Shown here one piece after another: positions 8,107 through 31,029 of a stretch of DNA of 58,443 bases. The DNA comes from an uncultured Candidatus Saccharibacteria bacterium. Lineage in GTDB: Bacteria; Patescibacteriota; Saccharimonadia; Saccharimonadales; JALRHH01. Below the pieces are notes generated by a model that was given only the letters and a program-made list of their open reading frames with translations, was not told the DNA's origin and did not search any database. Location: positions 1 to 58,443 of the forward strand of contig CAYYUY010000006.1 in NCBI GenBank assembly GCA_964474995.1, written 5' to 3'. The translations under genes were made by a program, and so were the position numbers. Within the stretch, counting starts at the first letter, position 1; every line of letters starts with the position of its first letter.

Positions 8107-8128
8107 GCTTGTGTGATACCGTATAGCT

Positions 8129-9418
8129 ATGGCCGAAGATTCACTACTACTTACTATCCAAAACGCTACTAAATCACTTGGTGCCAAGCTACTGCCAAAG
8201 CGCAGTGAAGTACTGTCTGTTGATGATGTACGTGCTGCTCGTGAATACATCGCAGGTTACTGGGAAAACCTTGAACGATTTCACCCAAAGGATGACGAAA
8301 GTCTACTTGGCTTGCCAAAGCCATATCTCGTTCCAGCATTTGAGGTCGGGCACGACTTTGACTTCAATGAAATGTACTACTGGGACAGTTACTTTATGGT
8401 ACAGGGTCTACTCGACGAAGCGCACAAAGAACTTGTCATGGGAATCCTTGAAAACTTATTGAGTCTTCAAAAGCGGTTCGGTGCTATTCCCAACGCTTCG
8501 CGAACTTACCTAACGGGCCGCTCGCAGCCACCGTTCCTGACGAGCTTTATTTTTGATGTCTACGATGCATACGATTTGCCCGAAAAGTGGCTGCAGGAAT
8601 CTATAGCTATTGCCAAACAAGAGTACCAGACTGTTTGGTTGGGTACGACCAAGCCAAACGCCCGGCTGGTCCACCAAGGTTTATCACGCTACTACGACGT
8701 GAATTATTTGCACGATCTTGCCGAAGCAGAAAGTGGCTGGGACATGACAACTCGTTTTGGCCGTAAGGCACTCAATTATTTGCCAATCGATCTCAATGCA
8801 TTGCTGTACAAGTACGAAGCTGATTTTGCACGTGCTGCCCGAATTGCTGGTGATGCGCGTGAGGCCGCCAAATGGGAAGTAGATGCTCGTCACCGCAAAG
8901 AAACCATAGACAAGCTGATGTGGAGTAATTTACGCGGATTGTATTACGATTACAATTTTGCCAAAGATAAACGCGGCGGTGTTGCATCGTTAGCTGCCTT
9001 TTACCCAATGTGGGCTGGGATGGTCGACGAGAAACAAGCCAAACAAATGGTCAAGGCGCTCGGTCGCTTTGAGGCGCGCGGAGGACTGACAACCACGGAC
9101 ACAGCACCGCTTAACCGCATGGTTCCGGGTGCTATGCCAACGCAGTGGGCCTACCCCAACGGCTGGGCGCCATTACAATATTTGGTCATCCGCGGGCTTG
9201 AACGCTATGGCTATCATGCTGATGCCAGTCGCTTGGCTCGTAAATGGCTCAAGACAAACCTCGACTGGTTCAATCGTAATGGTGTCTTCCTCGAAAAATA
9301 TAATGTCGTACAGCCGGATAAGCCGCCAATGAAAGGCGTCTATCCTTCGCAGACTGGCTTTGGTTGGACTAATGCGGTGTTTGAACGACTTTGCCAAGAA
9401 TACATCGACAAAAAATGA
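8129..9418 (+). CDS. Alpha,alpha-trehalase (GH37), cytoplasmic
   Basis: Signature blocks YYWDSYF, QPPF, SGWDMTTRF, LEKYNV and GFGWTNAVF. No signal peptide. Confidence 0.85.
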   Translation: MAEDSLLLTIQNATKSLGAKLLPKRSEVLSVDDVRAAREYIAGYWENLERFHPKDDESLLGLPKPYLVPAFEVGHDFDFNEMYYWDSYFMVQGLLDEAHKELVMGILENLLSLQKRFGAIPNASRTYLTGRSQPPFLTSFIFDVYDAYDLPEKWLQESIAIAKQEYQTVWLGTTKPNARLVHQGLSRYYDVNYLHDLAEAESGWDMTTRFGRKALNYLPIDLNALLYKYEADFARAARIAGDAREAAKWEVDARHRKETIDKLMWSNLRGLYYDYNFAKDKRGGVASLAAFYPMWAGMVDEKQAKQMVKALGRFEARGGLTTTDTAPLNRMVPGAMPTQWAYPNGWAPLQYLVIRGLERYGYHADASRLARKWLKTNLDWFNRNGVFLEKYNVVQPDKPPMKGVYPSQTGFGWTNAVFERLCQEYIDKK

Positions 9419-9573
9419 GTGACGAAGTGGTACTGCCGTGTGCAGATAAGATGGTTTTTGATTCTAAGGAAGAAGCAGAAGCCATTAGCGTGACGCTCGA
9501 ATGGCAACACGGCAGCACACTACGGGCATATCTTTGTCGGCACTGTGGCCTATGGCATTTATCGAGTCGCTAG
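9415..9573 (+). CDS. Small Cys-containing protein (52 aa), possible zinc ribbon
   Basis: ATG overlaps the trehalase stop (ATGA). Cys at position 8 plus CRHCGLWHL near the C-terminus. Confidence 0.5.
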   Translation: MSDEVVLPCADKMVFDSKEEAEAISVTLEWQHGSTLRAYLCRHCGLWHLSSR

Positions 9574-9780
9574 TGGCTGTGAAGATATGTCTTGCAGGGT
9601 ACCCCGCATAGAGCGAGAAAATTCATCATTTCCCTGGAACTGAGCAGGGTCATAGGTTATCTGGAAGAGACTCGTGACGGTTGTTTGGGCGACGCTGTAA
9701 CCATGCAGTGCAATGAGCGTTCCGCCAACGATAAAAGTGCTTAACATGCACGCCCTTAGTATTTGTTGCACCCAGTCCAT
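9559..9780 (-). CDS. Hypothetical small protein with one hydrophobic segment
   Basis: 73-aa ORF. AAGGA abuts the ATG, which is poor spacing. Weak call. Confidence 0.3.
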   Translation of the reverse strand: MDWVQQILRACMLSTFIVGGTLIALHGYSVAQTTVTSLFQITYDPAQFQGNDEFSRSMRGTLQDISSQPLATR

Positions 9781-9896
9781 TCCTTAATTTTGTATAGCGT
9801 ATCATGGGACTGCGTTCCAAATACAGCATAAGCATTTTAAATATTTCACAGATGTGACTGGTGTGACCCAGGGGTCTGAGGTAGACTACTAGATAT

Positions 9897-11354
9897 ATGA
9901 ATTACTTTGTCACAACTTCTATTCCCTATGTTAATGGTGAGCCGCATATTGGCCACGCGTTAGAATTTGTCATGGCTGATGTCTTGGCACGTGCTGCTCG
10001 CTCTAAGGGCACACCAGTTATTTTTTCGACTGGGTCCGATGAGCACGGTGGCAAGATTGCCGAAAAAGCCGAGGAGCTTGGCATTGATCCAAAGGCTTAC
10101 ACCGACAAAATGAGCGACAATTTCCGCGTCCTTGCCAAGACGCTGAACATCAGCAATGACCGCTTCATCCGCACGACTGACGCAGGTCACGAGCAGCGTG
10201 CGCAGCTGATTTGGCAGGCACTCAAAGACGACATCTACAAGGGTAAATACACCGGCTGGTACTGTACTGGCGACGAAGCGTTTTTCCCAGAAGCAACCGT
10301 CAAAGAAAACAACGGTATCTGTCCAAACCACAATCGTCCATATGACAAAATCGAAGAAGAGAATTACTTCTTCAAGCTGAGTAAGTACGCAGATCAGATT
10401 TTGGAAGCAATCGAAACCAACACATTCCAGATTATTCCTGCTACACGCCGCAACGAAATCTTGTCAGTTATCAAAAGTGGACTCGATGACATCAGCATCT
10501 CCCGTCCAAAAGAAAAGATTGGCTGGGGTATCCCCGTTCCTGGCGATGACGAACAGGTCATGTATGTTTGGTTTGAGGCGCTGATGAACTACATCACCGT
10601 TCTTGGCTACCCAGAACACGATGACTTCAAGAAATATTGGCCCGCAAATGTCCAGGTGATTGGCAAAGATATTTTGCGCTTCCACGCTGCTATCTGGCCG
10701 GGCATGTTGCTTGCGCTCGGACTACCGTTGCCGCAGAAGCTCTACGTCCATGGCTTCATCAACGCCGAAGGCGGACTCAAAATGGGTAAAAGTCTTGGCA
10801 ACGTGGTTGATCCAAATGAGATCATCAAAGAATATGGTACCGATGTATTTCGCTACTACATCCTGCGACATATTCCGTCATACACCGATGGTGAGTTCAG
10901 CTGGACGTTGCTCCACAACGCCTACAATAATGAATTGGCAAACGAGCTCGGTAACGCTGTGCAGCGCACGGCTGCCATGATTACGCAGTACCAAAATGGC
11001 CTGATTGGCGATATTCCACCGGCCGAGCACGATGTTGCGCAGTATTGGCAGGCAATCGAAGACTGTAAGTTTGACCGGGCACTCGATGAGGTCTGGGAAC
11101 AAGTTCGTGGTCTCAATCAGTATATCGATGAAGAAAAGCCATGGATGGTCCACAAAACCGGTGATGCCGATCACCTCCGTGAAGTACTCGCCTATCAGGC
11201 AAGTTGCTTGCTCGAAATCGCTGACTTGTTGCTACCATTCATGCCTGAAACAGCACTCAAAATTCGCCACGTATTTGAAGACGGCATTGTTCGTTCGATT
11301 GAGGGGACGCTATTCCCTCGTAAAGATGCTGCCGCAGCGCCAGTAAAGGCTTAG
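9897..11354 (+). CDS. metG: Methionyl-tRNA synthetase
   Basis: HIGH motif (PHIGHALE) and KMSKS variant (KMGKS). Class I MetRS layout without a C-terminal tRNA-binding appendage. Confidence 0.92.
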   Translation: MNYFVTTSIPYVNGEPHIGHALEFVMADVLARAARSKGTPVIFSTGSDEHGGKIAEKAEELGIDPKAYTDKMSDNFRVLAKTLNISNDRFIRTTDAGHEQRAQLIWQALKDDIYKGKYTGWYCTGDEAFFPEATVKENNGICPNHNRPYDKIEEENYFFKLSKYADQILEAIETNTFQIIPATRRNEILSVIKSGLDDISISRPKEKIGWGIPVPGDDEQVMYVWFEALMNYITVLGYPEHDDFKKYWPANVQVIGKDILRFHAAIWPGMLLALGLPLPQKLYVHGFINAEGGLKMGKSLGNVVDPNEIIKEYGTDVFRYYILRHIPSYTDGEFSWTLLHNAYNNELANELGNAVQRTAAMITQYQNGLIGDIPPAEHDVAQYWQAIEDCKFDRALDEVWEQVRGLNQYIDEEKPWMVHKTGDADHLREVLAYQASCLLEIADLLLPFMPETALKIRHVFEDGIVRSIEGTLFPRKDAAAAPVKA

Positions 11355-11359
11355 CCTTC

Positions 11360-12172
11360 ATGCAGTTTGTAGACACCCATTGTCATATTCAGTCTGTTGG
11401 TCAGTCGGCTGGCGAGCGCGCCACGCGTGAACTCTGGGCCAAGGCAGGTGATAGTTCACTCGACGAAGTCATCAAGCGTGCTCATGATGCAAGCGTTCAG
11501 CAGATGGTCTGTGTTGGCTGTGACCTTGCCGACAGTCAGCTGGCCGTCGAAGTCGTGCAGCAGTATGAAGGAATGTATGCCAGTATTGGTATCCATCCAC
11601 ACGAAGCCCAACACTACGTTGAAGATGCTGAGGCATTGGCAACATTTGCCGCACTAGCCACACAGCCAAAGGTCGTCGCAGTTGGCGAATGTGGCCTCGA
11701 TTATTTCTACGAACACTCCCCACGAGTCGCACAGATTAAGATCCTGGAATTCCAACTAGAACTAGCTCGTAGCAACAATTTGCCAGCTATTTTCCATACA
11801 CGACAGGCATTTGATGACTTTTGGCCCGTTTTTGATAACTTTAGTGGTGTTCGAGGCGTGTTGCATAGTTTCACTGACAGCCTGGCAAATATGCACAAAG
11901 CAGTTGAAAAGGGCTTGTTTATAGGGGTGAACGGCATTGCAACGTTTGCAAAAGGTGATTGGCAGCAGGCCATGTACCGGGCAATTCCACTAGAAAATCT
12001 GGTCCTGGAAACTGACGCCCCTTTCTTGACACCGATGCCCCATCGTGGTAAGGTATGTGAACCAAAGCATGTAATTAACACTGCGGAGTTTTTGAGTCGG
12101 CTGCGAGGGGAATCACTCGATACCTTGGCCCAAGAGACCACCAAGAACGCTCGCAGTTTGTTTGGTTTTTAA
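11360..12172 (+). CDS. tatD: TatD-family metal-dependent hydrolase
   Basis: N-terminal DTHCH motif and GECGLDY block, 270 aa. Confidence 0.85.
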   Translation: MQFVDTHCHIQSVGQSAGERATRELWAKAGDSSLDEVIKRAHDASVQQMVCVGCDLADSQLAVEVVQQYEGMYASIGIHPHEAQHYVEDAEALATFAALATQPKVVAVGECGLDYFYEHSPRVAQIKILEFQLELARSNNLPAIFHTRQAFDDFWPVFDNFSGVRGVLHSFTDSLANMHKAVEKGLFIGVNGIATFAKGDWQQAMYRAIPLENLVLETDAPFLTPMPHRGKVCEPKHVINTAEFLSRLRGESLDTLAQETTKNARSLFGF

Positions 12173-12178
12173 GCTGTT

Positions 12179-12433
12179 ATGAACAACTCACACAATAACC
12201 CTGAATTTGAGCGCCAGCACGCCCCAGAAGAGATGGTGATGCGCAAGCACACCGTCTACGAAGCAGCTGCAGTTGCACGTGTCGTGATTGGCAATGCATT
12301 GCAGCCAGTTGAAGCTGTGGCCCCTGTTCAAGCTCCCCTCGAAAATCCGTTTTTTGCAGAACAGCCAGCCAATACGATTGATGCAATACAACAACAAGTA
12401 GAGCGAGCGTATGATTTTCCAGAAGCTGCTTAG
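12179..12433 (+). CDS. Hypothetical protein (84 aa)
   Basis: ORF only. Overlaps the next ORF by 23 nt. Confidence 0.45.
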   Translation: MNNSHNNPEFERQHAPEEMVMRKHTVYEAAAVARVVIGNALQPVEAVAPVQAPLENPFFAEQPANTIDAIQQQVERAYDFPEAA

Positions 12434-12782
12434 CGGTCTGACCGAACAGAAACGTGCAGAACGCAAAGCCGAACTGTATCGCAACCTCATCCGTCACGAA
12501 GCTCGTATTGGTGGCCAGCTATTTGGTCCCGTACCCAAGGGTACCCGTCGTGAGTTCTTTTGCCTCGACAAGCACACCTGGGTTTGGCACGAAGAATGGA
12601 CCGATGAAAAAGGTACGCCACAAGTGCGTACTACCCGTTACGATGTACGTCCCAGCGGTGTATTAAAGGCCCAGCATGGTCACTACCAGGCTGTCAGCCC
12701 AGCCGAATCACTTCGACTCCTCGAAGCTATCAACCAGTACGAACAGCGCGTCAACAACGAACTCTACGCAGCCGTTGCCTAG
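12411..12782 (+). CDS. Hypothetical protein (123 aa)
   Basis: ORF only, basic and Trp-rich core (HTWVWHEEW). Confidence 0.55.
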   Translation: MIFQKLLSGLTEQKRAERKAELYRNLIRHEARIGGQLFGPVPKGTRREFFCLDKHTWVWHEEWTDEKGTPQVRTTRYDVRPSGVLKAQHGHYQAVSPAESLRLLEAINQYEQRVNNELYAAVA

Positions 12783-12794
12783 AATCACGGTACA

Positions 12795-13943
12795 ATGAAA
12801 TCCATGGACGAGCTTATCTATCTCGATCACGCTGCAACCACACCGCTCGACGAGCGGGTGTTTGCTACCATGCAACCGTACCTGACTACACAATTCTATA
12901 ACCCTTCAGCCACTTATTTGGCAGCCAAGTCAGTCAAACGAGATATTGAGTCTGCTCGCGCACGAGTAGCCCACTGGTTTGGCGCTCGTCCAAGCGAAGT
13001 TGTCTTTACGGCTGGTGGTACCGAAGCTAATAACTTGGCAATTCATGGTGTTATGGGGCAATACCCAGACGCCAATATGGTGGTCAGTAGTATTGAACAC
13101 GATGCGGTACTGCACCCAGCTGCTCAATATAGTGTCAAACTTGCGCCTGTCATGCCTGACGGGCTTATTGACGTTAAAGCGCTAATTGGGCTCATCGATG
13201 ACAAAACAGCTCTGGTGAGCGTTATGTACGTCAACAACGAAATTGGCACCATTCAGCCACTCAAACAGATTGCAGCCGCACTTGAACTCATTCGCAAACA
13301 ACGACATGCTGACGGCAACATGCACCCGTTACTGTTCCATACCGATGCCTGTCAGGCATCACTGTATCTTGATTTGCATGCCTCACGGCTCGGCGTCGAC
13401 CTTATGACCATCAACGCCAGTAAAATGTATGGACCAAAGCAGGTTGGTGCACTGTATGTTCGCGCCGGCATTGTGCTATCACCACAAATAGAAGGTGGCG
13501 GGCAAGAACGCGGCCTTCGCAGCGGTACCGAGAATGTAGCTGGCATCATTGGTCTCGCGGCAGCACTCGACCGCGCACAGACCGATCGTCACACCGAGGG
13601 CAAGCGATTGCAGCAGCTTCAGCAGCTCGCCTACAAACTTATAGCTGAGCAGCTACCAGCAGCAATATTGAACGGCTCGCTCAAGCACCGTTCACCAAAC
13701 AATATTCACCTGACAGTTCCTGGCGCAGATAACGAGCGGTTGATGATGGCCCTCGATGAGCAGGGAGTTCTGGTGGCCGTGGGGTCTGCCTGTAGCGCAA
13801 GCAGCGAAGAGCCTTCACATGTACTGCAAGCAATTGGTCTGACTGACGCCGATGCCCGCGCGAGCTTGCGACTCACCATGGGCCGATCGACCACCGAAGC
13901 AGCGATTCGTCGTACTATTTCTGGGCTAGCCAGCCTCGTTTAG
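12795..13943 (+). CDS. Cysteine desulfurase (class V aminotransferase, NifS/IscS-like)
   Basis: PLP-lysine context NASKMYGPK and C-terminal catalytic loop GSACSA. Confidence 0.85.
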   Translation: MKSMDELIYLDHAATTPLDERVFATMQPYLTTQFYNPSATYLAAKSVKRDIESARARVAHWFGARPSEVVFTAGGTEANNLAIHGVMGQYPDANMVVSSIEHDAVLHPAAQYSVKLAPVMPDGLIDVKALIGLIDDKTALVSVMYVNNEIGTIQPLKQIAAALELIRKQRHADGNMHPLLFHTDACQASLYLDLHASRLGVDLMTINASKMYGPKQVGALYVRAGIVLSPQIEGGGQERGLRSGTENVAGIIGLAAALDRAQTDRHTEGKRLQQLQQLAYKLIAEQLPAAILNGSLKHRSPNNIHLTVPGADNERLMMALDEQGVLVAVGSACSASSEEPSHVLQAIGLTDADARASLRLTMGRSTTEAAIRRTISGLASLV

Positions 13944-20305: not shown

Positions 20306-21301
20306 TTAGTCGATTGCGACGTAGTCAAAGCTGAAGCTTTGGCCGGCAGGTGCTGGGTTGGTACTGCAAATACTGAAGTTACTACTACTGCGGTTGATGT
20401 AGTAGTTCAGACCACCCGCTGCGGAGCCAACAGGACTTAGGGCGATATGTGGAGTGCCATTGAAACGATTAGTGAAGTTGACGGTTACAAAACAGCCAGC
20501 ACCAGGGGACCCACCAATATTGATGGTCACCGTACCAGCAGTGTCAGTACCGCTTACCGAGCTTGTACCACCGTTACCCAGGGCACCACCGTCTGATTTG
20601 CCTGGGGTGCCACCACCCGCGTCAATATGACGAATTAGTTGTAAGTCTCCGGCCAAGATAAGGCTTTGAACGTTGAGTACTGGCGCAGAAAGTGGGCCGC
20701 CGAAGGTCGCACCACCAGTACTATTGATACCTTTGACGTTTACTTGACCTTGTATGGTCATATTGCCAGCCACTGAGAGGCTATTGGCGGTAATCTGATC
20801 GAATGTGCTCGTACCTGATACAGAAATACCCGGTAGGCTCAGCGCGCCACCGACTTTGATTGCGCCAGCTACATCCAAGCTGTCACGGATGAGGACTTTA
20901 CCAGAGAATATCGCATTTGATTCAATTGTAAGTGTTTGTTTGGGGTCACCAACTTTGGCATCACTACCCTGCAGCTGTGCAAGCGCTTCTTTGGTTAATG
21001 GTTGGGTTGTAATGGTGGTAGGTGCGTCAGCTTTTTTACCTTTTTGGAATGATATAAACACCACGCCAAGCGCCAGCACGAATATGAATATGAATAGCAA
21101 AAAATAAATATTGAGATGGGTTATCAGACCACGTACGCGCTGGCCGATACTCTGACTCTTTTTGGTCTCGAGCTTTTCTACTGGTTCTGTTACAGAGCCA
21201 GTAGACTCAAGGCTACTTGGATCATAGTCGTTTGACCCGGTAGGGGTCTCAGTTGTCTCAGGACTAGTAGGTTGTTCTTCTTTTGATTTATCGTCGTCCA
21301 T
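20306..21301 (-). CDS. Membrane-anchored protein with extracellular beta-helix-like repeat region
   Basis: Acidic N-terminal tail, one TM (IYFLLFIFIFVLALGVVFISF), Gly/Ser/Val-rich short repeats (GAIKVGGALSLPGISVSGTSTF...) and a C-terminal globular domain. Confidence 0.75.
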   Translation of the reverse strand: MDDDKSKEEQPTSPETTETPTGSNDYDPSSLESTGSVTEPVEKLETKKSQSIGQRVRGLITHLNIYFLLFIFIFVLALGVVFISFQKGKKADAPTTITTQPLTKEALAQLQGSDAKVGDPKQTLTIESNAIFSGKVLIRDSLDVAGAIKVGGALSLPGISVSGTSTFDQITANSLSVAGNMTIQGQVNVKGINSTGGATFGGPLSAPVLNVQSLILAGDLQLIRHIDAGGGTPGKSDGGALGNGGTSSVSGTDTAGTVTINIGGSPGAGCFVTVNFTNRFNGTPHIALSPVGSAAGGLNYYINRSSSNFSICSTNPAPAGQSFSFDYVAID

Positions 21302-21407: not shown

Positions 21408-22157
21408 ATGAGGCTCGTGAAACAAACAAGGGTAGTTATGTCGCTAGTAGCTGTTTTGGTACTGTGTTTGCCGTTGCGCGCGCTGGCTGACCAATCTTCC
21501 TCGACAAATTACAAAGTTGATCAGACATTCTTTGGCTCAGGTGGTGATACTGAGAATTCATCAGCAAACTACAAAGCCAAGACAACCGTTGGTGAGCTTG
21601 GTGTTGGTAACTTCTCAAGTGCCAACTATCAAGCATTTGCCGGGTTTAATACTACGGATGAGCCATACCTTGAATTTGTAGTAACTGGTAGCAATATTGA
21701 TCTCGGTTATCTGAGTACTTCACAAGTCGCAACCGCCAACGGTCAGTTCTTTGTTCGAGCATGGCAATCAGGTGGTTATGTCATCCGTACGGAGGCAAAT
21801 CCACCGACAAATACTGGCCCGAGTGGGCATCAATTAACACCTATGACAGGTGGTGGATCGGTCCCAGGTACCGAACAATTCGGAATGAATCTTGTTAAAA
21901 ATACTAACTTTTGTGGTGTGGGTTGTAATCTGGGTGCGGATGAGCAGCAGAATAATCAATTCTCGAGCGGATCGGTAGCAAGCGGATACAATACCCCTGG
22001 AGTATTTAAATATAACAAGGGTGATATTATTGCTGAAGCAAACCAGAGCTCGAGCGTAACAGTCTATACATTATCGTATCTATTTAATATTAGTGGCATC
22101 ACGCAGTCTGGTGAGTATAAATTTAGTCATGTGTTAGTGGCTACGGCTACATTCTAG
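21408..22157 (+). CDS. Secreted pilin-like protein, family member 1 (249 aa)
   Basis: Signal peptide ...LPLRALA|DQ. Three S-x-N-Y-K/Q repeats. Shares EQFGMNL and the C-terminal SGEYKFSHVLVATATF-COOH motif with the next three genes. Confidence 0.8.
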   Translation: MRLVKQTRVVMSLVAVLVLCLPLRALADQSSSTNYKVDQTFFGSGGDTENSSANYKAKTTVGELGVGNFSSANYQAFAGFNTTDEPYLEFVVTGSNIDLGYLSTSQVATANGQFFVRAWQSGGYVIRTEANPPTNTGPSGHQLTPMTGGGSVPGTEQFGMNLVKNTNFCGVGCNLGADEQQNNQFSSGSVASGYNTPGVFKYNKGDIIAEANQSSSVTVYTLSYLFNISGITQSGEYKFSHVLVATATF

Positions 22158-22254
22158 GTAATTTTGGTTCAATTTTTTGCAAAAATAACGGTTATCTGTG
22201 CAGATGTTGTGGAAAAGTAGAGCATAAGCCAAATCAACCCCTGTTGTTGGCAAT

Positions 22255-22283
22255 TTGCTAATTCGGTTATGGTTTGCTACTGT
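22255..22283 (+). promoter_or_regulatory. Promoter ATTTGCTA-N17(TGn)-TACTGT for paralog A
   Basis: Same TTGCTA -35 context and spacing as at 23588. Confidence 0.4.
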
Positions 22284-22342
22284 CAGGGTGTCTTCATAAA
22301 ACAACAAGGCATAAGTAAGTAAAAACAATCAGGAGGCCTCAC

Positions 22343-23491
22343 ATGTTCCACCTTCGTCAAACGAAGCGGCTTGTCTATCCATTGACCGCCGTTTCCTTAA
22401 TCGTAGCGACCGTTCTGCCGGTACTGCAGTCTTCGACTGCCAATGCCGCGCAAGTACAATCGCGTAGCATTCAGATTAGTGAATCAGCGGCCAGCGCTAC
22501 GAGCGTGAAATATCACGTCTCATTCAAGACGGCCACCACAGGTTCAGTTGGCGGTTACGTCCTCGAATTCTGTGATAACAGTCCAATTATCGGCGACACG
22601 ACGTGTGGCGCGATTGCTGGGTTTAATATTGGCGCTCCAACAGTGACAAACCAGTCGGTCGGCGGGGCTGGTATAGAAGATCTTTCGACCTTCACAACGG
22701 CCTCAGCGCTAACAACGCATACACTTGCGTTGTCTGCAGGTTCCGCTGTCGCAATGACAAGTGGTAACGTCGCCTCATTTGACCTAACGTCAGTTACGAA
22801 CCCATCTACGGTGAACCACACCTACTATGCTCGTGTATACACTTACGGTAGCGCTGGTGGTGCAACTGGCTACTTGCTAGCGAACCCAAGTGCAGGTGCA
22901 GCAGTTGTAGATTCAGGTGGTTTTGCACTCAGTACTGCTCAGCAAGTTACCGTTACTGCCAAGGTCCAGGAACAATTAAGTTTCTGTGTCTACACTGGTG
23001 CTAACTGTGCTGCGGGTGGTAGTACTGTGAACCTCGGTGACACAAACGGCGTTCTAGCTCAGTACAACACGTCATATCAAGACGCTTCAACCAAGTTTGA
23101 TATAGCAACGAACGCTCAAACAGGTGCGATTGTGAACCTCAAAATGGACACTCTCAAATCTGGCGCAAATTCAATTGCTGCTCAGGGTGTAGCCTGTACG
23201 GCTGACTCTATTGCAACGAATGTTGCACAGTTCGGAGTCCGTGTTAGTAATGTGGGTGCTGCACCATTGGTTGCTACGTCACCGTACGACTGTGCTGCGA
23301 CCAATCACACGCTCGATACCAACAACACAACTGGTACCACCTCTCCATACGGCCAAACAGTTGCCAATACGACCTCACAGCCATTGGCTACCACAACTGG
23401 TACTGTCGAATTCTCAGCCAAGGCTGCTTTGACAACCCCAGCTGGTATTTACACAACGACCGCGAACTTCATCGCGACAGGTACGTTCTAG
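22343..23491 (+). CDS. Secreted pilin-like protein, paralog A (382 aa)
   Basis: SD AATCAGGAG and signal peptide ending ANA|AQ. Two conserved Cys pairs, QFG motif, C-terminus PAGIYTTTANFIATGTF-COOH. Confidence 0.85.
   Translation: MFHLRQTKRLVYPLTAVSLIVATVLPVLQSSTANAAQVQSRSIQISESAASATSVKYHVSFKTATTGSVGGYVLEFCDNSPIIGDTTCGAIAGFNIGAPTVTNQSVGGAGIEDLSTFTTASALTTHTLALSAGSAVAMTSGNVASFDLTSVTNPSTVNHTYYARVYTYGSAGGATGYLLANPSAGAAVVDSGGFALSTAQQVTVTAKVQEQLSFCVYTGANCAAGGSTVNLGDTNGVLAQYNTSYQDASTKFDIATNAQTGAIVNLKMDTLKSGANSIAAQGVACTADSIATNVAQFGVRVSNVGAAPLVATSPYDCAATNHTLDTNNTTGTTSPYGQTVANTTSQPLATTTGTVEFSAKAALTTPAGIYTTTANFIATGTF
23369..23490 (+). repeat. 122-nt block identical to 24713-24834 (3' ends of paralogs A and B)
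   Basis: Perfect identity by direct comparison. Further identical blocks of about 40-50 nt lie upstream. Confidence 0.9.
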
Positions 23492-23517
23492 TAAATAAAC
23501 GTTAAACGTTTTAGCGT

Positions 23518-23552
23518 AGAAAGAACCGCCCACAAGGTGGTTCTTTCTATTT
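23518..23552 (+). terminator. Rho-independent terminator between paralogs A and B
   Basis: 13-bp stem AGAAAGAACCGCC / GGTGGTTCTTTCT with loop CACAA, then ATTT. Confidence 0.65.
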
Positions 23553-23587
23553 AGCTTAAGCGCATTATTATTCCTGTGGATAACTAT

Positions 23588-23616
23588 TTGCTACATAATC
23601 ATAAGCGTGGTAAGAT
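23588..23616 (+). promoter_or_regulatory. Promoter ATTTGCTA-N17(TGn)-TAAGAT for paralog B
   Basis: Hexamers at 23588-23593 and 23611-23616. Parallels the paralog A promoter. Confidence 0.4.
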
Positions 23617-23677
23617 TCCGGCATTAGGTCACTAATATAAAAACGTAAACAAAAATAAAAATCAGGAGAATATTAAG

Positions 23678-24835
23678 ATGAAAAAGCTCAAGCAGCTTGC
23701 AAGACGCAGCGCGAGTATAACCAACGCGTTGGTTTTGATCGTAGCTACGCTGTTGCCAATCCTTGCATTGCAGGGTACAGCAACAGCAGCGCAAGTGACG
23801 ACGCGTTCCATACAGATGAGTAATTCATCAGGTGGCGCCACGGGTGTGACATACCATGTTTCATTTAAGATGGCATCGGTAGCATCACAAAACATACAAG
23901 GTATTGTGGTTGATTTCTGTGATAACAGTCCAATTATTGGCGACACCACTTGTTCTGCACTTCCAGGTTCGTTTAGTACCGGGACAACTGTTGCTAACCA
24001 ATCAAGCCTCGCTGGTGCTGATATATCAACCTTCACCACCGTTACAGCCCTTAGTCATGGAATCTCTTTGACGGCAGCAGCACCAGTTAGTATGACATCG
24101 TCAGCTAATGCCGTATCGTTTGATATTACAGCTGCGACAAACCCATCGACCAACAACCACACCTTCTACGCTCGTATTTACACATACGCAACAGCTGCGG
24201 CTGCAAACGGCTACACCGTAGCTAACCCAAGTGTTGTAGGCGCATATGTTGATGCAGGCGGTGTTGCACTCAGTACAGCACAGCAAATTACCGTTACTGC
24301 AAAGGTCCAGGAACAGTTAACCTTCTGTGTCTACACTGGTGCTAACTGTGCCGCGGGTGGTAGTACAGTAGCTCTTGGTGACGCAAACGGTGTTCTTGCA
24401 AACTACGCAAGTGCCTATCAAGACGCTTCAACCAAGTTTGATATAGCAACGAACGCTCAAACAGGTGCAGTGGTAAATCTCAAGATGGACACTTTGAAAT
24501 CTGGTGGTAACTCAATTGCCCAACAGGGTGTAGCTTGTGCTGCAGACTCCACAACGACCAGCGTTGCACAATTCGGTTTACGTGTCAGTAACGTTGGCGC
24601 TGCTCCACTCGAGACGATCACTGGCGCTTACGACTGTGGCTCTGGTAATCACATGCTTGATACCAACAACACAACTGGTACCACCTCTCCATACGGCCAA
24701 ACGATCGCTGACACGACCTCACAGCCATTGGCTACCACAACTGGTACTGTCGAATTCTCAGCCAAGGCTGCTTTGACAACCCCAGCTGGTATTTACACAA
24801 CGACCGCGAACTTCATCGCGACAGGTACGTTCTAA
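23678..24835 (+). CDS. Secreted pilin-like protein, paralog B (385 aa)
   Basis: SD AATCAGGAG and signal peptide ending ATA|AQ. C-terminal half nearly identical to paralog A, N-terminal third divergent. Confidence 0.85.
   Translation: MKKLKQLARRSASITNALVLIVATLLPILALQGTATAAQVTTRSIQMSNSSGGATGVTYHVSFKMASVASQNIQGIVVDFCDNSPIIGDTTCSALPGSFSTGTTVANQSSLAGADISTFTTVTALSHGISLTAAAPVSMTSSANAVSFDITAATNPSTNNHTFYARIYTYATAAAANGYTVANPSVVGAYVDAGGVALSTAQQITVTAKVQEQLTFCVYTGANCAAGGSTVALGDANGVLANYASAYQDASTKFDIATNAQTGAVVNLKMDTLKSGGNSIAQQGVACAADSTTTSVAQFGLRVSNVGAAPLETITGAYDCGSGNHMLDTNNTTGTTSPYGQTIADTTSQPLATTTGTVEFSAKAALTTPAGIYTTTANFIATGTF
24713..24834 (+). repeat. 122-nt block identical to 23369-23490
   Basis: Direct comparison. 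Confidence 0.9.
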
Positions 24836-24853
24836 GCGTATACAATATGAAGT

Positions 24854-25912
24854 ATGCAAATTTTGGGAAAGACTGACCGCTCTCTAAAACTTGTAAGCAT
24901 ACTTACAGCAATGGCACTCCTATTCTCGGGAGTGCCATTTGCGCGTCTTGCATCTGCAGCCCAGCTGATTAATAGGTATGATAAGTTATCTAGTTCTGAG
25001 GCTTCTGCTGTCGCAACGCATGAAGTTGGCTTTACTTTCGGTAATCTTGCTGTTCCTGTTGGTTCGATAAGTTTAGAATTTTGCGGCAACGATCCCTTGC
25101 CAAATACACCTTGCACACCGCCGAGTGGTTTTGATGCAACAGGTGTTAGTCTGGATGATCAGGCAGGAGAAATTGGGTTTAGTGTTGACCCAAGCTCAAG
25201 TGTAAACAAGATAATTTTGACAAGGCCAGCTGCGTTGCCGACAAGTACCCCATCAACGTATACCCTAGGGAATATTATCAATCCAGATACCATCGGAACA
25301 TTTTATATACGATTACAAACGTTTACGAGTACTGATGGCACAGGTGTTGATATTGAGGCGGCAGGACTTGCTCTTTCGACAAGTGCGAAATTCACTGTCA
25401 GCACTGAGGTCCCACCGTATCTTACATTTTGTTCAAGTGTCACTATATCTGGAGATGACTGCACGTCCGCTACAAGCTTTCTTATAGATATGGGTGAATT
25501 TGTGGCCACGAAATCAAGTAGTGCAACTTCTGAGTTTGTGGTCCAAACAAATGCACAGTCAGGCTATAGCGTTACACTCTCGGGCAGCACGCTAACATCT
25601 GGTAATAACACCATAACTGCATTAGCAGTACCTACCACGCCACAGAAGGGGACACCCCAGTTTGGTATGAACTTACGAGCTAATTCCAACCCATCCATCG
25701 GTGCTGATCCATCAGGACTCGGGCTTGGTATCGTGGGTGCATCTTATGGGGTGCCGAATAAGTTCACGTTCAGGAATGGCGATATTATTGCTTCAGCAGG
25801 GGCGCCTGACTATGAAAAGTACACAGTGACCTACATTGCCAATGTTAACTCAACCCAAGCTCCAGGCTTTTACGCAACCACTATCTCCTTCATATGTTTG
25901 GCAAACTTTTAA
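24854..25912 (+). CDS. Secreted pilin-like protein, family member 4 (352 aa)
   Basis: Signal peptide ...RLASA|AQ. Shares the AAQ..R...S.S.AS N-terminal motif, LEFC-x10-C, TNAQSGYSVTLSG, PQFGMNL and C-terminal APGFYATTISFICLANF-COOH. Confidence 0.8.
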   Translation: MQILGKTDRSLKLVSILTAMALLFSGVPFARLASAAQLINRYDKLSSSEASAVATHEVGFTFGNLAVPVGSISLEFCGNDPLPNTPCTPPSGFDATGVSLDDQAGEIGFSVDPSSSVNKIILTRPAALPTSTPSTYTLGNIINPDTIGTFYIRLQTFTSTDGTGVDIEAAGLALSTSAKFTVSTEVPPYLTFCSSVTISGDDCTSATSFLIDMGEFVATKSSSATSEFVVQTNAQSGYSVTLSGSTLTSGNNTITALAVPTTPQKGTPQFGMNLRANSNPSIGADPSGLGLGIVGASYGVPNKFTFRNGDIIASAGAPDYEKYTVTYIANVNSTQAPGFYATTISFICLANF

Positions 25913-25971
25913 ACGCCATGCTACCATAAGCGCATACAAAATTTGTTTAATAAACAAGAGGAACGGGAAGA

Positions 25972-26949
25972 ATGAAAAAACACATCAGACAGTTGATGGT
26001 TGGCTTGGTGAGTGCCACCTTTATGGCAGTCGCGCTTGTAGTTTCACCTGCAAAGGCAGCAACACAAAATCAGAGTGCTAATGGTTTTCGAATCTCGCCA
26101 ATTCGCAGTGAGCTAACTATTGAAAAAGGTAAAAGAACTACACTGACTATCAGTGTAGAAAACCCAACTAACGCGGCGACTACGGTGCGTGCTGACGTGC
26201 TTGATTTTGTTGCTGGTTCAGATGAGTCAGGGCAACCTCGATTGATCCTTGATAACAAAACACCAGCACCAAAGAACGACTTCAAAAAGCTTGTTGGCTC
26301 TGTGCCTGACTTAGAACTCAAGGCTAACGAACGAAAATCAGTAAATATTACCATTGCAGTACCTTCAGACGCCTCGTCTGGCGGCTACTATGGTGCTATT
26401 CGTTTCGTACCCGCAAGCGCCAGTGACCAATCTACTGTTGGTGTGGTTGCTAGTGTCGGTTCACTTGTTCTAGTAACCGTACCAGGTAACTTAAATGAAC
26501 AGCTTAACCTTGTTCAGCTTAGTGCAGGCCAAAACGATAAAACAAAAAGCTTTATCACTAAAGGCAAAGTTGATGTTGTTACAAGACTTAAAAACACGGG
26601 GGACATTCATGTTAAGCCTTTTGGCCGTGTAGATGTAAAGAACATGTTTGGTAAAACAGTTGCTACGTTTGAACTCAACAATACCGAGCCACGAGCCAAT
26701 GTTCTGCCTGATACCACTCGCAAATTTACGAATAATTTGTCAAACAAAAAATGGTTTGGTCGTTACACAATTGAAGCCAACATTGGTTATCAGCAGGGTA
26801 GTGGAAATATTTTGAGCGCTAAGTCTACTTTCTGGTATGTACCTACTTGGGCATTAATAATCTTAGGTGTACTACTCGTCATCATCGGTTTGGGTATCTA
26901 CCTACTCTTCCGCAAATATGGCAAAAAAGGCCATCGTTCACGGAAATAG
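25972..26949 (+). CDS. Signal peptide plus two Ig-like modules plus C-terminal TM anchor; DUF916/DUF3324-like (Csc/WxL-cluster type) or PapD-like protein
   Basis: FRISPIRSELTIEKGKRTTLTISVENPTN and VPSDASSGGYYGAIRF blocks. Second module has RLKNTGDIHVKPFGRVDV. C-terminal TM followed by KYGKKGHRSRK. Confidence 0.8.
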   Translation: MKKHIRQLMVGLVSATFMAVALVVSPAKAATQNQSANGFRISPIRSELTIEKGKRTTLTISVENPTNAATTVRADVLDFVAGSDESGQPRLILDNKTPAPKNDFKKLVGSVPDLELKANERKSVNITIAVPSDASSGGYYGAIRFVPASASDQSTVGVVASVGSLVLVTVPGNLNEQLNLVQLSAGQNDKTKSFITKGKVDVVTRLKNTGDIHVKPFGRVDVKNMFGKTVATFELNNTEPRANVLPDTTRKFTNNLSNKKWFGRYTIEANIGYQQGSGNILSAKSTFWYVPTWALIILGVLLVIIGLGIYLLFRKYGKKGHRSRK

Positions 26950-26977
26950 ATAGGTTCTGAAGAACTAAACAACTAAA

Positions 26978-27008
26978 CAAGGGCTACTGAGGTAGCCCTT
27001 GTTTTTTA
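26978..27008 (+). terminator. Rho-independent terminator
   Basis: CAAGGGCTAC-tgag-GTAGCCCTTG followed by TTTTTT. Confidence 0.8.
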
Positions 27009-27065
27009 TCCCTGTTACGTTATGATTGATGTAAGTAAAGCATAACAAGTTAAAGCAAAATAAAT

Positions 27066-27995
27066 ATGCGACTCAAGCGACTACTAGGCACACATAAATA
27101 CATATCCGGACTGGTCTCTATACTTGTGCTAGTGATAAGTTTTGTCGGTGTACAGGCAGCATTTGCTGCAGCCCCGCCACCCGAAAACCCACAAAGCGGG
27201 TCAACTGGCGTGCAGGGCAAGATCTCGAGCCCGCCACCATCAGTTGCAGCCACAATCTCTTTGCCTCGTGATGGTCAGAGCTTTAGTACGCTCCCCGTCA
27301 CTGTGACTGGTCTGTGTCCAAAGGATACACTTGTAAAGATCTTCAAAAACAATGTGTTTTCTGGATCAGTACAGTGTACAAATGGTAGTTTTAGTATTCA
27401 AATTGATCTGTTTGATGGTAGGAACGAACTTATTGCACGCGTCTACGATGCGCTTGATCAGGCAGGGCCAGATTCTAGCACGGTGACCGTAAACTTTGAT
27501 GACAATAAAGCCGGTACTGCATCACGCGTCAGTCTTACCAGTAATTACGCCAAGCGCGGCGCCAATCCTGGGTCAATCCTAACATGGCCGATCGTCTTAT
27601 CAGGTGGTATTGGTCCGTATGCATTGAGTATCGACTGGGGCGACGGCAAGTCACCTGATCTTAAAAGCCAAGCCTTTCCAGGTGCATTGGATATCACCCA
27701 TACTTATGACAGCCCAGGTGTATACAACATCGTGATTAAAGCCACCGATAGTAATGGTGGGGTGGCATATCTGCAGCTTGTTGGCATTGCGAATGGTCCG
27801 TTGAGCCAAGATAGCACCAATGGTACTAATAAAAACGGTGGCAGCAACAGTGATTCATCGACTACCAAGACAAAGGTGTTATGGCAGCCGGCAGCAATTC
27901 TCCTTCCGTTGATTGGTGCAGGATTCTGGTTGGGTGGTCGGCATCAGATGCATACTTTACGCAAGAAGATTGAGCGTGGCGATCGACCTTTCTAA
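27066..27995 (+). CDS. Anchored surface protein with Ig-like and PKD domains
   Basis: N-terminal signal/anchor, Pro-rich linker, PKD signature IDWGDG...THTYDSPGVYNIVIKATDSNG, C-terminal TM plus basic tail. Confidence 0.8.
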   Translation: MRLKRLLGTHKYISGLVSILVLVISFVGVQAAFAAAPPPENPQSGSTGVQGKISSPPPSVAATISLPRDGQSFSTLPVTVTGLCPKDTLVKIFKNNVFSGSVQCTNGSFSIQIDLFDGRNELIARVYDALDQAGPDSSTVTVNFDDNKAGTASRVSLTSNYAKRGANPGSILTWPIVLSGGIGPYALSIDWGDGKSPDLKSQAFPGALDITHTYDSPGVYNIVIKATDSNGGVAYLQLVGIANGPLSQDSTNGTNKNGGSNSDSSTTKTKVLWQPAAILLPLIGAGFWLGGRHQMHTLRKKIERGDRPF

Positions 27996-29139: not shown

Positions 29140-31029
29140 ATGACAGCTCAAGAAATCCGAAACAAGTACATTCAGTTTTTTGCTGATCGCGGCCATGCGG
29201 TGATTCCACGTGCTCCGATTGCACTCAAAGACGACCCAACAACCTTATTCACGGGCTCTGGTATGCAACCAATGATTCCGTTCTTGCTGGGCGAGACGCA
29301 TCCTAAAGGCAACCGAATCGTAAATAGCCAGACGTGTCTCCGTGCACAAGATATTGAAGACATCGGTGACAACCGCCATACGACGTTTTTCGAAATGCTC
29401 GGTAACTGGAGTATGGGCGATTACTTCAAAAAGCAACAAGTGGAGTGGATGTTTGAATTTTTGGACACAGTCGTAGAGCTTGATATGAGCAAACTATATG
29501 TCACGTGTTTTATTGGTGCGCCCGAATATGACATCCCAAAAGACACCGAGGCTGCCGCTGTTTGGAAAGATTTGTTTACCGCTAAGGGTCTGTCGACTGG
29601 CGAAGCCGATATGGGCTCAGAAGCCAATGGTTACGCCCGTGGCATGAAAGACGGCGAACGTATTTTCTACTATGACGGCAGCAAAAACTGGTGGAGTCGT
29701 AATGGCGGCCCCGAAACAACGCCAGTTGGTGATCCATGTGGTCCTGATAGTGAAATGTTCTATGACTTTGAAACGCCACATGATACAAGCTTTGGTGAAC
29801 ACTGTCATCCGAACTGTGACTGTGGTCGCTTCATGGAAATCGGCAACAACGTCTTCATGGCCTACAAGAAAGTCAGTGAAGGCAAGTTCGAAGCCCTCGA
29901 AAAGCCAAACATTGACCATGGTTCTGGACTTGAACGCATTGCTGCTGCCAAGATCAATAACCCCGACGTCTTCAAGATCAGCCTGATGTGGCCAATTATT
30001 GAACAGTTACAGACTATCTCTGGCAAAAAGTACGAAAGCCACACCGAAAGTATGCGTGTGATCGCTGATCACCTTCGTGCGGCAACTTTCTTGGCTGTCG
30101 ACGGCGTAATCCCAAACAACAAAGAGCAGGGCTACGTCATGCGACGACTTTTGCGCCGTGCAATTCGGTACGCCTTTGACCTCGGGGTTGAGCAGAACTT
30201 TTTGGAGCAAGTAGTGCCAGTGATCGCTGATTTGTACGCAGATGATTACCCAGAAGTCGTGAAAAGTCGTGAAAAGATCATCGAAATCTTGGTCAAAGAA
30301 GAGAAAGCCTTCCGCCAGACTATCCGAAAGGGAATCAAGGAACTCGAGAAGCTTAAATCAGAAACTCTGAGTGGTGAAACATTATTCAAACTTTACGATA
30401 CATTTGGCTTTCCAGTAGAGCTGAGCATCGAGGAGGCCTACAAACAAGACATTCCAGTTCCAGCTGATTGGCGTGAAAAGTTTGATCAGCATATGGCTGA
30501 GCAACGGGCTCGCAGCCAAACTGCCGCCAAAGGTACCTTCAAGGGTGGCCTCGGTGGTCAGACGCTCCAACACAAGAAATACCACACTGCCACGCACTTG
30601 ATGTATCAGGCACTCCGTACGGTGCTCGGTGATCACGTTGTCCAGCACGGTAGCAATATTACCGAGGAACGACTGCGTTTTGACTTCAGCCACCCAGAAA
30701 AAGTAACACCTGAGCAACTCAAGCAAGTCGAAGACATCGTCAATGAGCAAATTAGCAAAGATCTCAAAGTTAGCTACGCTGAATACCCAACACAAGTAGC
30801 CCGAGAAGACATGGGTGCACTCGGCGCCTTCGGTGATCGTTATGGCGATACCGTCAAAGTCTACAAAATGATTGCGGACGGCACCGATAAGCCATTTAGT
30901 TTCGAAATATGTGGTGGCCCACACGTTGACCACACCCTAGAACTGTTTGATGACAACAAGCGCTTCAAGATTCTCAAGGAAGAGTCCTCAAGCGCAGGCA
31001 TTCGACGTATAAAAGCCGTTTTGCAGTAA
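29140..31029 (+). CDS. alaS: Alanyl-tRNA synthetase, short form (629 aa) ending after the editing domain
   Basis: N-terminal IRNKYIQFFADRGH and HTTFFEMLGNWSMGDYFK. Editing-domain HTATHL and CGGPHV. No C-Ala domain. Confidence 0.9.
   Translation: MTAQEIRNKYIQFFADRGHAVIPRAPIALKDDPTTLFTGSGMQPMIPFLLGETHPKGNRIVNSQTCLRAQDIEDIGDNRHTTFFEMLGNWSMGDYFKKQQVEWMFEFLDTVVELDMSKLYVTCFIGAPEYDIPKDTEAAAVWKDLFTAKGLSTGEADMGSEANGYARGMKDGERIFYYDGSKNWWSRNGGPETTPVGDPCGPDSEMFYDFETPHDTSFGEHCHPNCDCGRFMEIGNNVFMAYKKVSEGKFEALEKPNIDHGSGLERIAAAKINNPDVFKISLMWPIIEQLQTISGKKYESHTESMRVIADHLRAATFLAVDGVIPNNKEQGYVMRRLLRRAIRYAFDLGVEQNFLEQVVPVIADLYADDYPEVVKSREKIIEILVKEEKAFRQTIRKGIKELEKLKSETLSGETLFKLYDTFGFPVELSIEEAYKQDIPVPADWREKFDQHMAEQRARSQTAAKGTFKGGLGGQTLQHKKYHTATHLMYQALRTVLGDHVVQHGSNITEERLRFDFSHPEKVTPEQLKQVEDIVNEQISKDLKVSYAEYPTQVAREDMGALGAFGDRYGDTVKVYKMIADGTDKPFSFEICGGPHVDHTLELFDDNKRFKILKEESSSAGIRRIKAVLQ

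Follow-up and report, generated by a model that had tools for sequence, protein, structure and literature searches.

It is found that six consecutive genes at positions 21408-27995 of the window very probably make up a pam operon, which encodes the Pam pilus, a system specific to the Candidate Phyla Radiation (CPR) and first described in Ca. Mycosynbacter amalyticus. By the window we mean the whole stretch of DNA that was analysed, i.e., the 58,443-nt forward-strand stretch of contig CAYYUY010000006.1 (assembly GCA_964474995.1), from an uncultured Candidatus Saccharibacteria bacterium. We give this reading a probability of about 0.88. The locus is one that is already explained by a system described and curated in 2026, and the order of its genes is pamT, two paralogous pilin genes with products of the size of PamB, a conserved third pilin gene, one gene for a membrane-anchored chaperone and pamR. 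Calling of the open reading frames (ORFs) gave six of them on the + strand, with lengths of 249, 382, 385, 352, 325 and 309 aa, exactly as in the first-pass annotation of this stretch. They are as follows, with the evidence for each (NCBIfam and Pfam models, AlphaFold2 (AF2) models, Foldseek searches or gene position) in brackets.

21408-22157, + strand: pamT (ORF1), tip pilin, 249 aa (NF058579, NF058581)
22343-23491, + strand: pilin 1, 382 aa, 38.5 kDa precursor (NF058581, AF2)
23678-24835, + strand: pilin 2, 385 aa, 38.7 kDa precursor (NF058581)
24854-25912, + strand: pilin 3, 352 aa, two-domain, single-copy, always directly upstream of the chaperone gene in related loci (NF058581, gene position)
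25972-26949, + strand: membrane-anchored pilus chaperone (ORF5), 325 aa (PF06030, AF2, Foldseek)
27066-27995, + strand: pamR (ORF6), RbmA-like anchor/terminator protein, 309 aa (NF058578)

The assignment is carried by the models of NCBIfam release 20, each of which has a curated cutoff. ORF1 is matched by the PamT equivalog model (NF058579, CPR_pilus_PamT) with 253.2 bits, the cutoff being 240, over residues 6-249, and ORF6 is matched by the PamR equivalog model (NF058578, CPR_pilus_PamR) with 405.7 bits, the cutoff being 300. The model of the Pam pilin C-terminal domain (NF058581, cutoff 55) gives 121, 79, 69.5 and 152 bits in the 249-, 382-, 385- and 352-aa proteins, respectively. This bears out the suggestion, made in the first-pass annotation, of pilin-like subunits having an acceptor domain of the donor-strand type; the novelty that was implied at the same time does not hold, since the profile searches place the four proteins in the characterised Pam family. 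In Pfam the four secreted proteins have no family match. In particular, the likeness to SCPU proteins that had been suggested finds no counterpart, as SCPU (PF05229) is present neither in the four window proteins (E<=1) nor among the 25 most-matched of the 32 Pfam families obtained with 115 pilin homologs (E<=10). Those 25 families include no WxL or pilin family either, and in the same search DUF7151 gives a weak match on the pilin Cys loop. It is also noted that a motif scan of seven locus proteins found neither LPXTG, the sorting signal of sortase-dependent pili, nor a class III prepilin signal (G-F-T-L-I-E), that of type IV pili; the signal peptides of the locus proteins are all type I-like, with A-x-A cleavage contexts.

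The system to which the locus is assigned is known from a preprint in which the structures of two M. amalyticus filaments were determined by cryo-electron microscopy (cryo-EM) at 2.8 and 3.6 Å (bioRxiv 10.64898/2026.03.03.709456). The filaments are made of PamA (55 kDa) and PamB (38.7 kDa), with the inter-domain linker of one subunit being given to the next subunit by donor-strand exchange. The operon there also has PamE, which is a third two-domain pilin, PamT, which is a single-domain tip, PamC and PamD, which are PapD-like chaperones bearing a transmembrane helix at the C-terminus, and PamR, which is anchored and RbmA-like, and its conserved neighbours are the genes for ATP synthase and one described as 'tail fibre-like' (bioRxiv 10.64898/2026.03.03.709456). 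For the window locus, the family membership, the folds, the synteny and the conservation patterns are established here. The filament and the donor-strand exchange were shown only for PamA and PamB of M. amalyticus, and that the window pilins assemble likewise is a prediction made by analogy with them.

The four secreted proteins, i.e., PamT and the three pilins, are clearly paralogous as judged from their sequences, with a likeness far beyond chance. By hhalign, PamT aligns to the C-terminal domain of the 352-aa type with a probability of 99.9% (E 3e-32) and to that of the 382-aa type with 98.2%, and the latter two domains align to each other with 99.5% (E 4e-22). In the alignment, QFG is invariant in all four proteins inside QFG[MVL][NR][LV], and the 382-, 385- and 352-aa proteins have TNAQ[ST]G, which is degenerate (RAWQSGG) in the 249-aa protein, in agreement with what had been noticed before. 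The three terminal strands quoted in the first-pass annotation are correct letter for letter, and G-x-Y and the C-terminal Phe are invariant across the four proteins. That the chain ends on Phe is true of these four proteins, but it is not a rule of the family, where the last residue is aromatic rather than Phe-specific (Y in 97, F in 21 and I in 2 of 120 homologs). Similarly, the block that had been described after the signal peptide is present, but its form is AAQ-x3-R-x4-S-x-S, with the spacing first given being off by one and with the final 'AS' being absent from the 385-aa protein. The conserved Cys pairs are there as had been described, namely C77/C88 and C215/C222 in the 382-aa protein, which has in addition C285/C317, and C77/C87 and C193/C203 in the 352-aa protein. 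Pilins 1 and 2 have three Cys pairs each, and from this number and from the precursor masses we infer that they correspond to PamB and not to PamA.

The AF2 model of the 382-aa pilin (predicted local distance difference test, pLDDT, 91.9) has two all-beta domains. Over the 115 homologs, the mean conservation is highest in the linker between the domains (0.74) and in the last 16 residues (0.81), with that of the N-terminal domain being 0.53 and that of the C-terminal domain being 0.57. This is the pattern that is expected of a donor strand and its acceptor strand. The pattern equals that reported for the pilins of the Pam preprint, where the linker and the last residues are also highest (bioRxiv 10.64898/2026.03.03.709456). 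The family is large: at least 506 homologs of the 382-aa pilin were found, and the profile of the four paralogs reaches 1797 clusters at E<=1e-3 among 1.84 billion representatives clustered at 50% identity.

It could be argued that these proteins are independent secreted adhesins of immunoglobulin (Ig) fold, or envelope proteins like those of a surface layer (S-layer), which are co-located and do not assemble by donor strands. Consistent with this, the pilins are Ser/Thr-rich and acidic with few charged residues, and the Foldseek matches of the whole 382-aa pilin model are mainly generic tandem-Ig adhesins (FnBPA, SdrG and ClfA) and integrin calf domains, with a template-modelling (TM) score of ~0.2; the score is this low because the domain orientation differs. 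However, CfaE, the two-domain tip subunit of a chaperone-usher pilus, is among the same matches (the WxL domain 9i25_A is outside the top 50), the C-terminal strand and the linker are invariant, and the locus encodes a dedicated protein of chaperone fold, a single-domain subunit for capping and, as terminator, an anchored protein whose N-terminal strand is conserved. With the curated family assignment to the Pam system added to these facts, an origin of the locus as a set of unconnected adhesins becomes highly improbable.

The two outer genes of the operon encode PamT, the predicted tip, and PamR, the predicted anchor. PamT has the acceptor domain only, with no N-terminal sandwich domain, and a mature mass of ~23 kDa. 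At its mature N-terminus (residues 28-91, positions 21489-21680), upstream of the acceptor domain, there are three S-S-x-N-Y-(K/Q/R) repeats with Gly-rich turns between them, which are kept in 23 species and which may serve as an adhesive tip or as self-capping strands. PamR has a signal peptide, an N-terminal strand SGSVGLEGKIS-PPP, two domains of Ig or fibronectin type III (FnIII) type, a C-terminal segment of moderate hydrophobicity and a tail that is basic, and the N-terminal strand followed by the PPP linker is kept in 33 species. ORF6 had previously been called an anchored PKD-domain protein. The anchoring and the Ig/FnIII-type domains stand, but the PKD matches are below the Pfam cutoffs (25.5 against 27 and 22.3 against 23.5), Glucodextran_B likewise matches below threshold, and the protein is better named RbmA-like PamR.

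ORF5 is a chaperone of the PamC/PamD type. Its description in the first-pass annotation as an anchored DUF916/PapD-like protein was right: it matches PF06030 (DUF916, WxLIP_PGBD) with 35.2 bits, the cutoff being 27.3, it has a transmembrane helix and it finds chaperone-usher chaperones in Foldseek. It consists of a signal peptide, two Ig-like domains, the first of which is the DUF916/WxLIP_PGBD one, a C-terminal transmembrane helix (residues 292-316) and a basic tail, and its AF2 model (pLDDT 89.5) has the two Ig domains, the helix 292-316 and a low-confidence loop 151-160. Directly after this loop lies a conserved strand, V-x-L-T-A-S-V-x-x-L-V-L-V-E-V-P-G. PF06030 is above the Pfam cutoff in 121/121 chaperone homologs, with a best E of 9e-12. 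In the Foldseek search of the model the first matches are the E. faecium WxLIP structures 9i1y and 9i25 ('WxLIP bound to long WxL', which contains a 226-residue WxL domain chain beside WxLIP), followed by CfaA, CsuC, EcpB, CupB2 and Caf1M, the chaperone-usher chaperones having E of 1e-7 to 1e-10. By hhalign, the Pam chaperone family aligns to WxLIP with a probability of 98.2% (E 5e-14) and with both Ig domains spanned; the alignment has 223 columns when realigned and 316 without realignment, then including the signal peptide and the transmembrane helix. The Pam chaperone as a homolog of the Firmicute WxLIP (DUF916-DUF3324-transmembrane helix) is thus a solid conclusion, and it is the one new point that goes beyond the Pam preprint, in which WxL, DUF916 and Csc have zero mentions (bioRxiv 10.64898/2026.03.03.709456). 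A literature search within the library used found no link between CPR and WxL and no paper for 9i1y/9i25. DUF3324 itself gives no Pfam match in the window chaperone, nor is it among the top 25 families of its 121 homologs. The modelled likeness to the PapD-type chaperones is at the level of the fold only; of the 121 homologs, four match PapD_C weakly, at E 0.006 at best, and PapD_N is absent from the top 25 families.

Based on this homology, one may consider that the locus encodes not a pilus but a short cell-bound adhesin complex of the WxL/Csc type, with no polymer, where the DUF916-type protein acts as a permanent membrane anchor, as proposed in enterococci. The chaperone is a full-length WxLIP homolog, the gene logic is that of the Csc clusters (a small subunit consisting of the domain only, larger subunits and a transmembrane-anchored DUF916 protein), and a complex of WxLIP with a WxL domain has been crystallised (9i25), all of which would fit. 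The subunits speak against it. They belong to the Pam pilins, a family for which filaments have been seen by cryo-EM, and the conservation of their linker strand is as expected for a donor strand between subunits. As had been stated in the first-pass annotation, they are without the W-x-L motif (0 in the four window secreted proteins), and they are also without a Pfam WxL match. The pilin C-terminal domain was compared with the WxL domain by hhalign, with narrow and broad profiles, in local and global modes and with a reversed-sequence null; the probability is <=5%, over the last ~20 columns only, which is not significant, and the terminal-strand alignment, with P of 0.008-0.08 compared with 0.3-0.55 for the null, was rejected as a sign of homology. 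The resemblance to Csc clusters that had been proposed therefore holds for the chaperone, while for the subunits homology with WxL proteins could not be shown. Overall we regard a complex of the WxL/Csc type as improbable.

A further homolog of the chaperone was met in a tblastn search against plasmids, which reached no Firmicute WxL cluster and matched plasmid NZ_CP140100.1 of Deinococcus sp. AB2017081 (locus 7851-13536). The protein there, secreted, of 272 aa and with two Ig domains, is without a transmembrane helix, and it matches the Pam chaperone family with E of 8.6e-24 in hmmsearch and with a probability of 99.1% (E 1e-18, 227 columns) in hhalign. Its neighbours, of which the first two are secreted, are a protein of 293 aa with the C-terminal end NFKLTGTF-COOH, one of 181 aa and a 1090-aa Ig/CarboxypepD_reg protein. 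The family of the 293-aa protein has 15 members, and the three that have a source name are all from Deinococcus; as a candidate homolog of the Pam pilins it was rejected, with only the last 16 residues aligning (E 0.18, not significant).

The arrangement of the locus in relatives is also consistent with the Pam pilus reading. A search with PamR gave 35 Saccharimonadia loci at 41-68% identity, and a local phmmer survey showed that essentially all of the complete ones (~30) are arranged as atpD-atpC-(331 aa, - strand)-pamT-[0-4 large pilins]-352-type pilin-chaperone-pamR-mnmA-alaS. Synteny in relatives, a point which had been raised with the first-pass annotation, is thus very strong, with the same order in ~30 Saccharimonadia species. 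Where a full-length copy is kept, which is so in 27 loci, the orthologs of the 352-aa pilin reach 180-350 bits, and the position is the same in all complete loci. By this position, the 352-aa pilin is likely to be PamE-like and to be the base/adaptor subunit. The large pilins of the related loci are very divergent, with 0-4 copies per locus. Departures from the common layout were seen in a few loci: in L022 there are two genes for chaperones, with one lying between the large pilin and the 352-type pilin; in L014 the flanking genes are rearranged; in L029 both pamT and the 331-aa gene are inverted; and in L032 and L034 the large variable pilin is missing. Among the proteins matched by the Pam pilin profile there is one of 1202 aa (P0338) that is matched in five separate stretches, which may be either a fusion of several pilins or an artefact of assembly or gene calling.

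The variable part can be seen more closely in two comparisons. Firstly, pilin 1 and pilin 2 have 69% identity as a whole, with 59% for the N-terminal domain and 85% for the linker plus C-terminal domain, and their tandem genes (22343-24835) have a 122-nt identical 3' stretch in common. This suggests, from the nucleotide identity, gene conversion of the assembly-critical part together with diversification of the exposed part. Secondly, the sister genome GCA_964428995.1 has the same pam gene content, and the identities to it are 96% for AtpD, 88% for the chaperone, 85% for pilin 2, 84% for PamT, 78% for PamR, 77% for the 352-type pilin and 74% for pilin 1, whose N-terminal domain is at 59%. Pilin 1 is thus the fastest-evolving component of the operon, and from the low identity of the pilins it follows that the shaft pilins are the fast-evolving, copy-variable part of the system. 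The contigs of the sister genome break within the pilin array, and one of them (L068) begins 26 nt before the chaperone gene. It is also observed that AlaS (629 aa, window 29140-31029; 645 aa, L068 3739-5676) is only 72% identical to that of the sister genome, which is unusually high divergence for a housekeeping enzyme, with the adjoining MnmA being at 88% and AtpD at 96%.

Putting these results together, we propose a model of the assembly of the window pilus. In the model, all six products would be exported by Sec, and the pilins would polymerise head to tail via donor-strand exchange, with each linker strand filling the C-terminal-domain groove of the subunit that follows. PamT would cap the distal tip, because it has the acceptor domain only. 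The membrane-anchored chaperone would hold the new subunits by placing its own conserved strand (that after loop 151-160) in their groove and would pass them on, at the membrane, to the fibre as it grows, with no usher taking part. The two variable PamB-sized paralogs would form the shaft and would probably bear the host-facing, fast-evolving surface, and the conserved 352-aa pilin would be at the base of the fibre. Finally, the N-terminal strand of PamR would enter the last subunit, ending the growth and tying the fibre to the membrane. An important point to note is that we infer from the features described above in which order the subunits stand, how the chaperone strand is used, what PamR does and that the pilus serves in host contact.

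Several points weigh against the Pam pilus reading or against the transfer of the published scheme to the window. In M. amalyticus there are two chaperones, PamC and PamD, whereas there is one in the window, and there is no PamA-sized (55 kDa) pilin in the window; with one chaperone and no such pilin, the published order of assembly may not carry over to the window operon. That the window pilins are orthologs of PamA, PamB or PamE is deduced from their size, their Cys pairs and where their genes lie rather than by comparing the proteins directly. The closest solved relatives of the chaperone are the WxLIPs, which in Firmicutes are thought to stay bound to their partners and not to polymerise them. 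Moreover, the window operon comes from the genome of an uncultivated organism, and the source that describes the Pam system is a preprint. Related searches may be given here. Sequence searches of the Protein Data Bank (PDB) with the 382- and 352-aa pilins, in copies without the PamA/PamB entries 25PZ/25QA, gave nothing meaningful, and the Cell 2023 transposon-sequencing (Tn-seq) paper has no mention of a chaperone, usher or DUF916 that is attributable to the window locus.

Besides the six genes, three other features of the locus are to be described.

20306-21301, - strand: divergent gene for a 331-aa membrane protein, which recurs beside pamT in related loci
23517-23549, + strand: stem-loop of 14-15 bp just after pilin gene 1 (fold z -3.16; 2/200 shuffles fold as well)
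26975-27009, + strand: terminator-like hairpin between the chaperone gene and pamR (z -3.39; 1/200 shuffles fold as well)

The 331-aa gene adjoins pamT in nearly all related loci, and its product has an N-terminal cytoplasmic tail, one transmembrane segment at ~56-88 and an extracellular beta-rich part, with a weak Bactofilin-like match of 18.5 bits in Pfam. We take it for the 'tail fibre-like' neighbour of the preprint, its membership of the pilus system being uncertain. The hairpin at 26975-27009 has a perfect 13-bp stem and a 4-nt loop with a U-run after it, and given such a terminator-like element upstream, pamR may be expressed separately at a lower level. The stem-loop at 23517-23549 is possibly an attenuator or partial terminator that would raise pilin 1 over the downstream products. 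Together, the two hairpins may set the stoichiometry of the subunits. The gap after pamT, which is equally long, is unstructured on RNA folding. In a scan of the locus for consensus promoters and terminators the counts were no higher than in shuffles, and it was only the two hairpins that stood out on folding. Within the 58-kb window there is one chaperone gene in the operon and no other Pam-like ORF.

As regards what the locus means, Pam pili are probably used by the ultrasmall CPR bacteria to reach host cells, and the window operon is a minimal form of the system, made up of a single chaperone and three two-domain pilins besides a tip and an anchor. The fast-evolving and copy-variable shaft pilins would fit a role in host recognition in episymbionts. 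The locus itself is of modest interest, and the one lead worth passing on is the link between the chaperone and WxLIP. This homology ties a CPR pilus that has been solved by cryo-EM to the poorly understood WxL loci for adhesion and virulence in enterococci, lactobacilli and listeriae, and it suggests a testable mechanism of assembly for them.

We now compare the window locus with the known systems. With M. amalyticus it has in common that the PamT, PamR and Pam pilin C-terminal domain families are above their curated cutoffs, that the pilins are two-domain proteins with a conserved linker, that the chaperone has two Ig domains and a transmembrane anchor with no usher present, and that genes for ATP synthase and a gene called 'tail fibre-like' lie next to the operon, both organisms being of the Saccharimonadia lineage. 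A further difference from that operon, besides those given above, is that the window has two tandem PamB-sized paralogs (38.5 and 38.7 kDa) plus the conserved 352-aa pilin.

With the chaperone-usher pili (Pap/Fim, CFA/I and the archaic Csu) the Pam system shares the fold of the chaperone (CfaA, CsuC, EcpB, CupB2 and Caf1M), an incomplete Ig-like fold of the subunit that is completed by a donated strand, and the layout of tip, shaft and terminator. The Pam terminal strand, with its Gly, Tyr and terminal aromatic residue, recalls the C-terminal motif of the Pap subunits. By contrast, the Pam system is without an usher or outer membrane, with no usher-like product being found among the genes of the locus or of the syntenic loci, and its chaperone is membrane-anchored and falls outside the PapD_N/PapD_C sequence families. 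Moreover, the Pam donor strand is the inter-domain linker rather than an N-terminal extension, and each Pam pilin has an extra N-terminal sandwich domain.

The Csc/WxL clusters were represented by 29 Firmicute WxL clusters, which were fetched by scanning metagenomes for the WxLIP motif NQIDKxxxYFDLK and which have a large WxL protein, a small LPXTG protein and 2-3 small WxL proteins, then WxLIP. It has been described that WxLIP is predicted to insert a strand that completes the WxL sandwich, that the WxL platform is covered by a loosely tethered N-terminal strand, and that WxL proteins are bound to peptidoglycan, a description as filaments not being given (PMC10599100, PMC9772566). By analogy, the insertion of the WxLIP strand into the WxL sandwich reads like donor-strand complementation. 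The chaperone of the window is homologous to WxLIP, with a signal peptide, two Ig domains and a C-terminal transmembrane helix in both, and in both a small subunit consisting of the domain only is joined by larger subunits that have the shared domain at their C-terminal end, the anchored DUF916 protein coming last. The differences are that the window has no LPXTG protein, PamR being membrane-anchored instead, and that its lineage is CPR, whereas that of the clusters is Bacilli. The terminal strands are alike, with G-I-Y-T-T-T-L-T-F-I-A in Pam and x-x-Y-T-T-x-L-T-W-x-L in WxL proteins. Small and large WxL proteins end in Y-T-T-x-L-T-W-x-L-x-D-x-P, and the Pam pilin in Y-T-T-T-L-T-F-I-A-T-G-T-Y.

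Finally, we note a tentative view, to which we give somewhat less than even odds, that the CPR Pam pilus and the Firmicute Csc/WxL system are branches of one ancient, usher-less system of donor-strand assembly in monoderm bacteria with an anchored chaperone, having a relative with a soluble chaperone in Deinococcus. If this is true, the WxL domain would be the counterpart of the Pam C-terminal acceptor domain, with the second W-x-L corresponding to the Pam F-I-A, and strand complementation via WxLIP would be what assembles, and perhaps polymerises, the WxL proteins of enterococci, lactobacilli and listeriae, in place of a simple binding to peptidoglycan.

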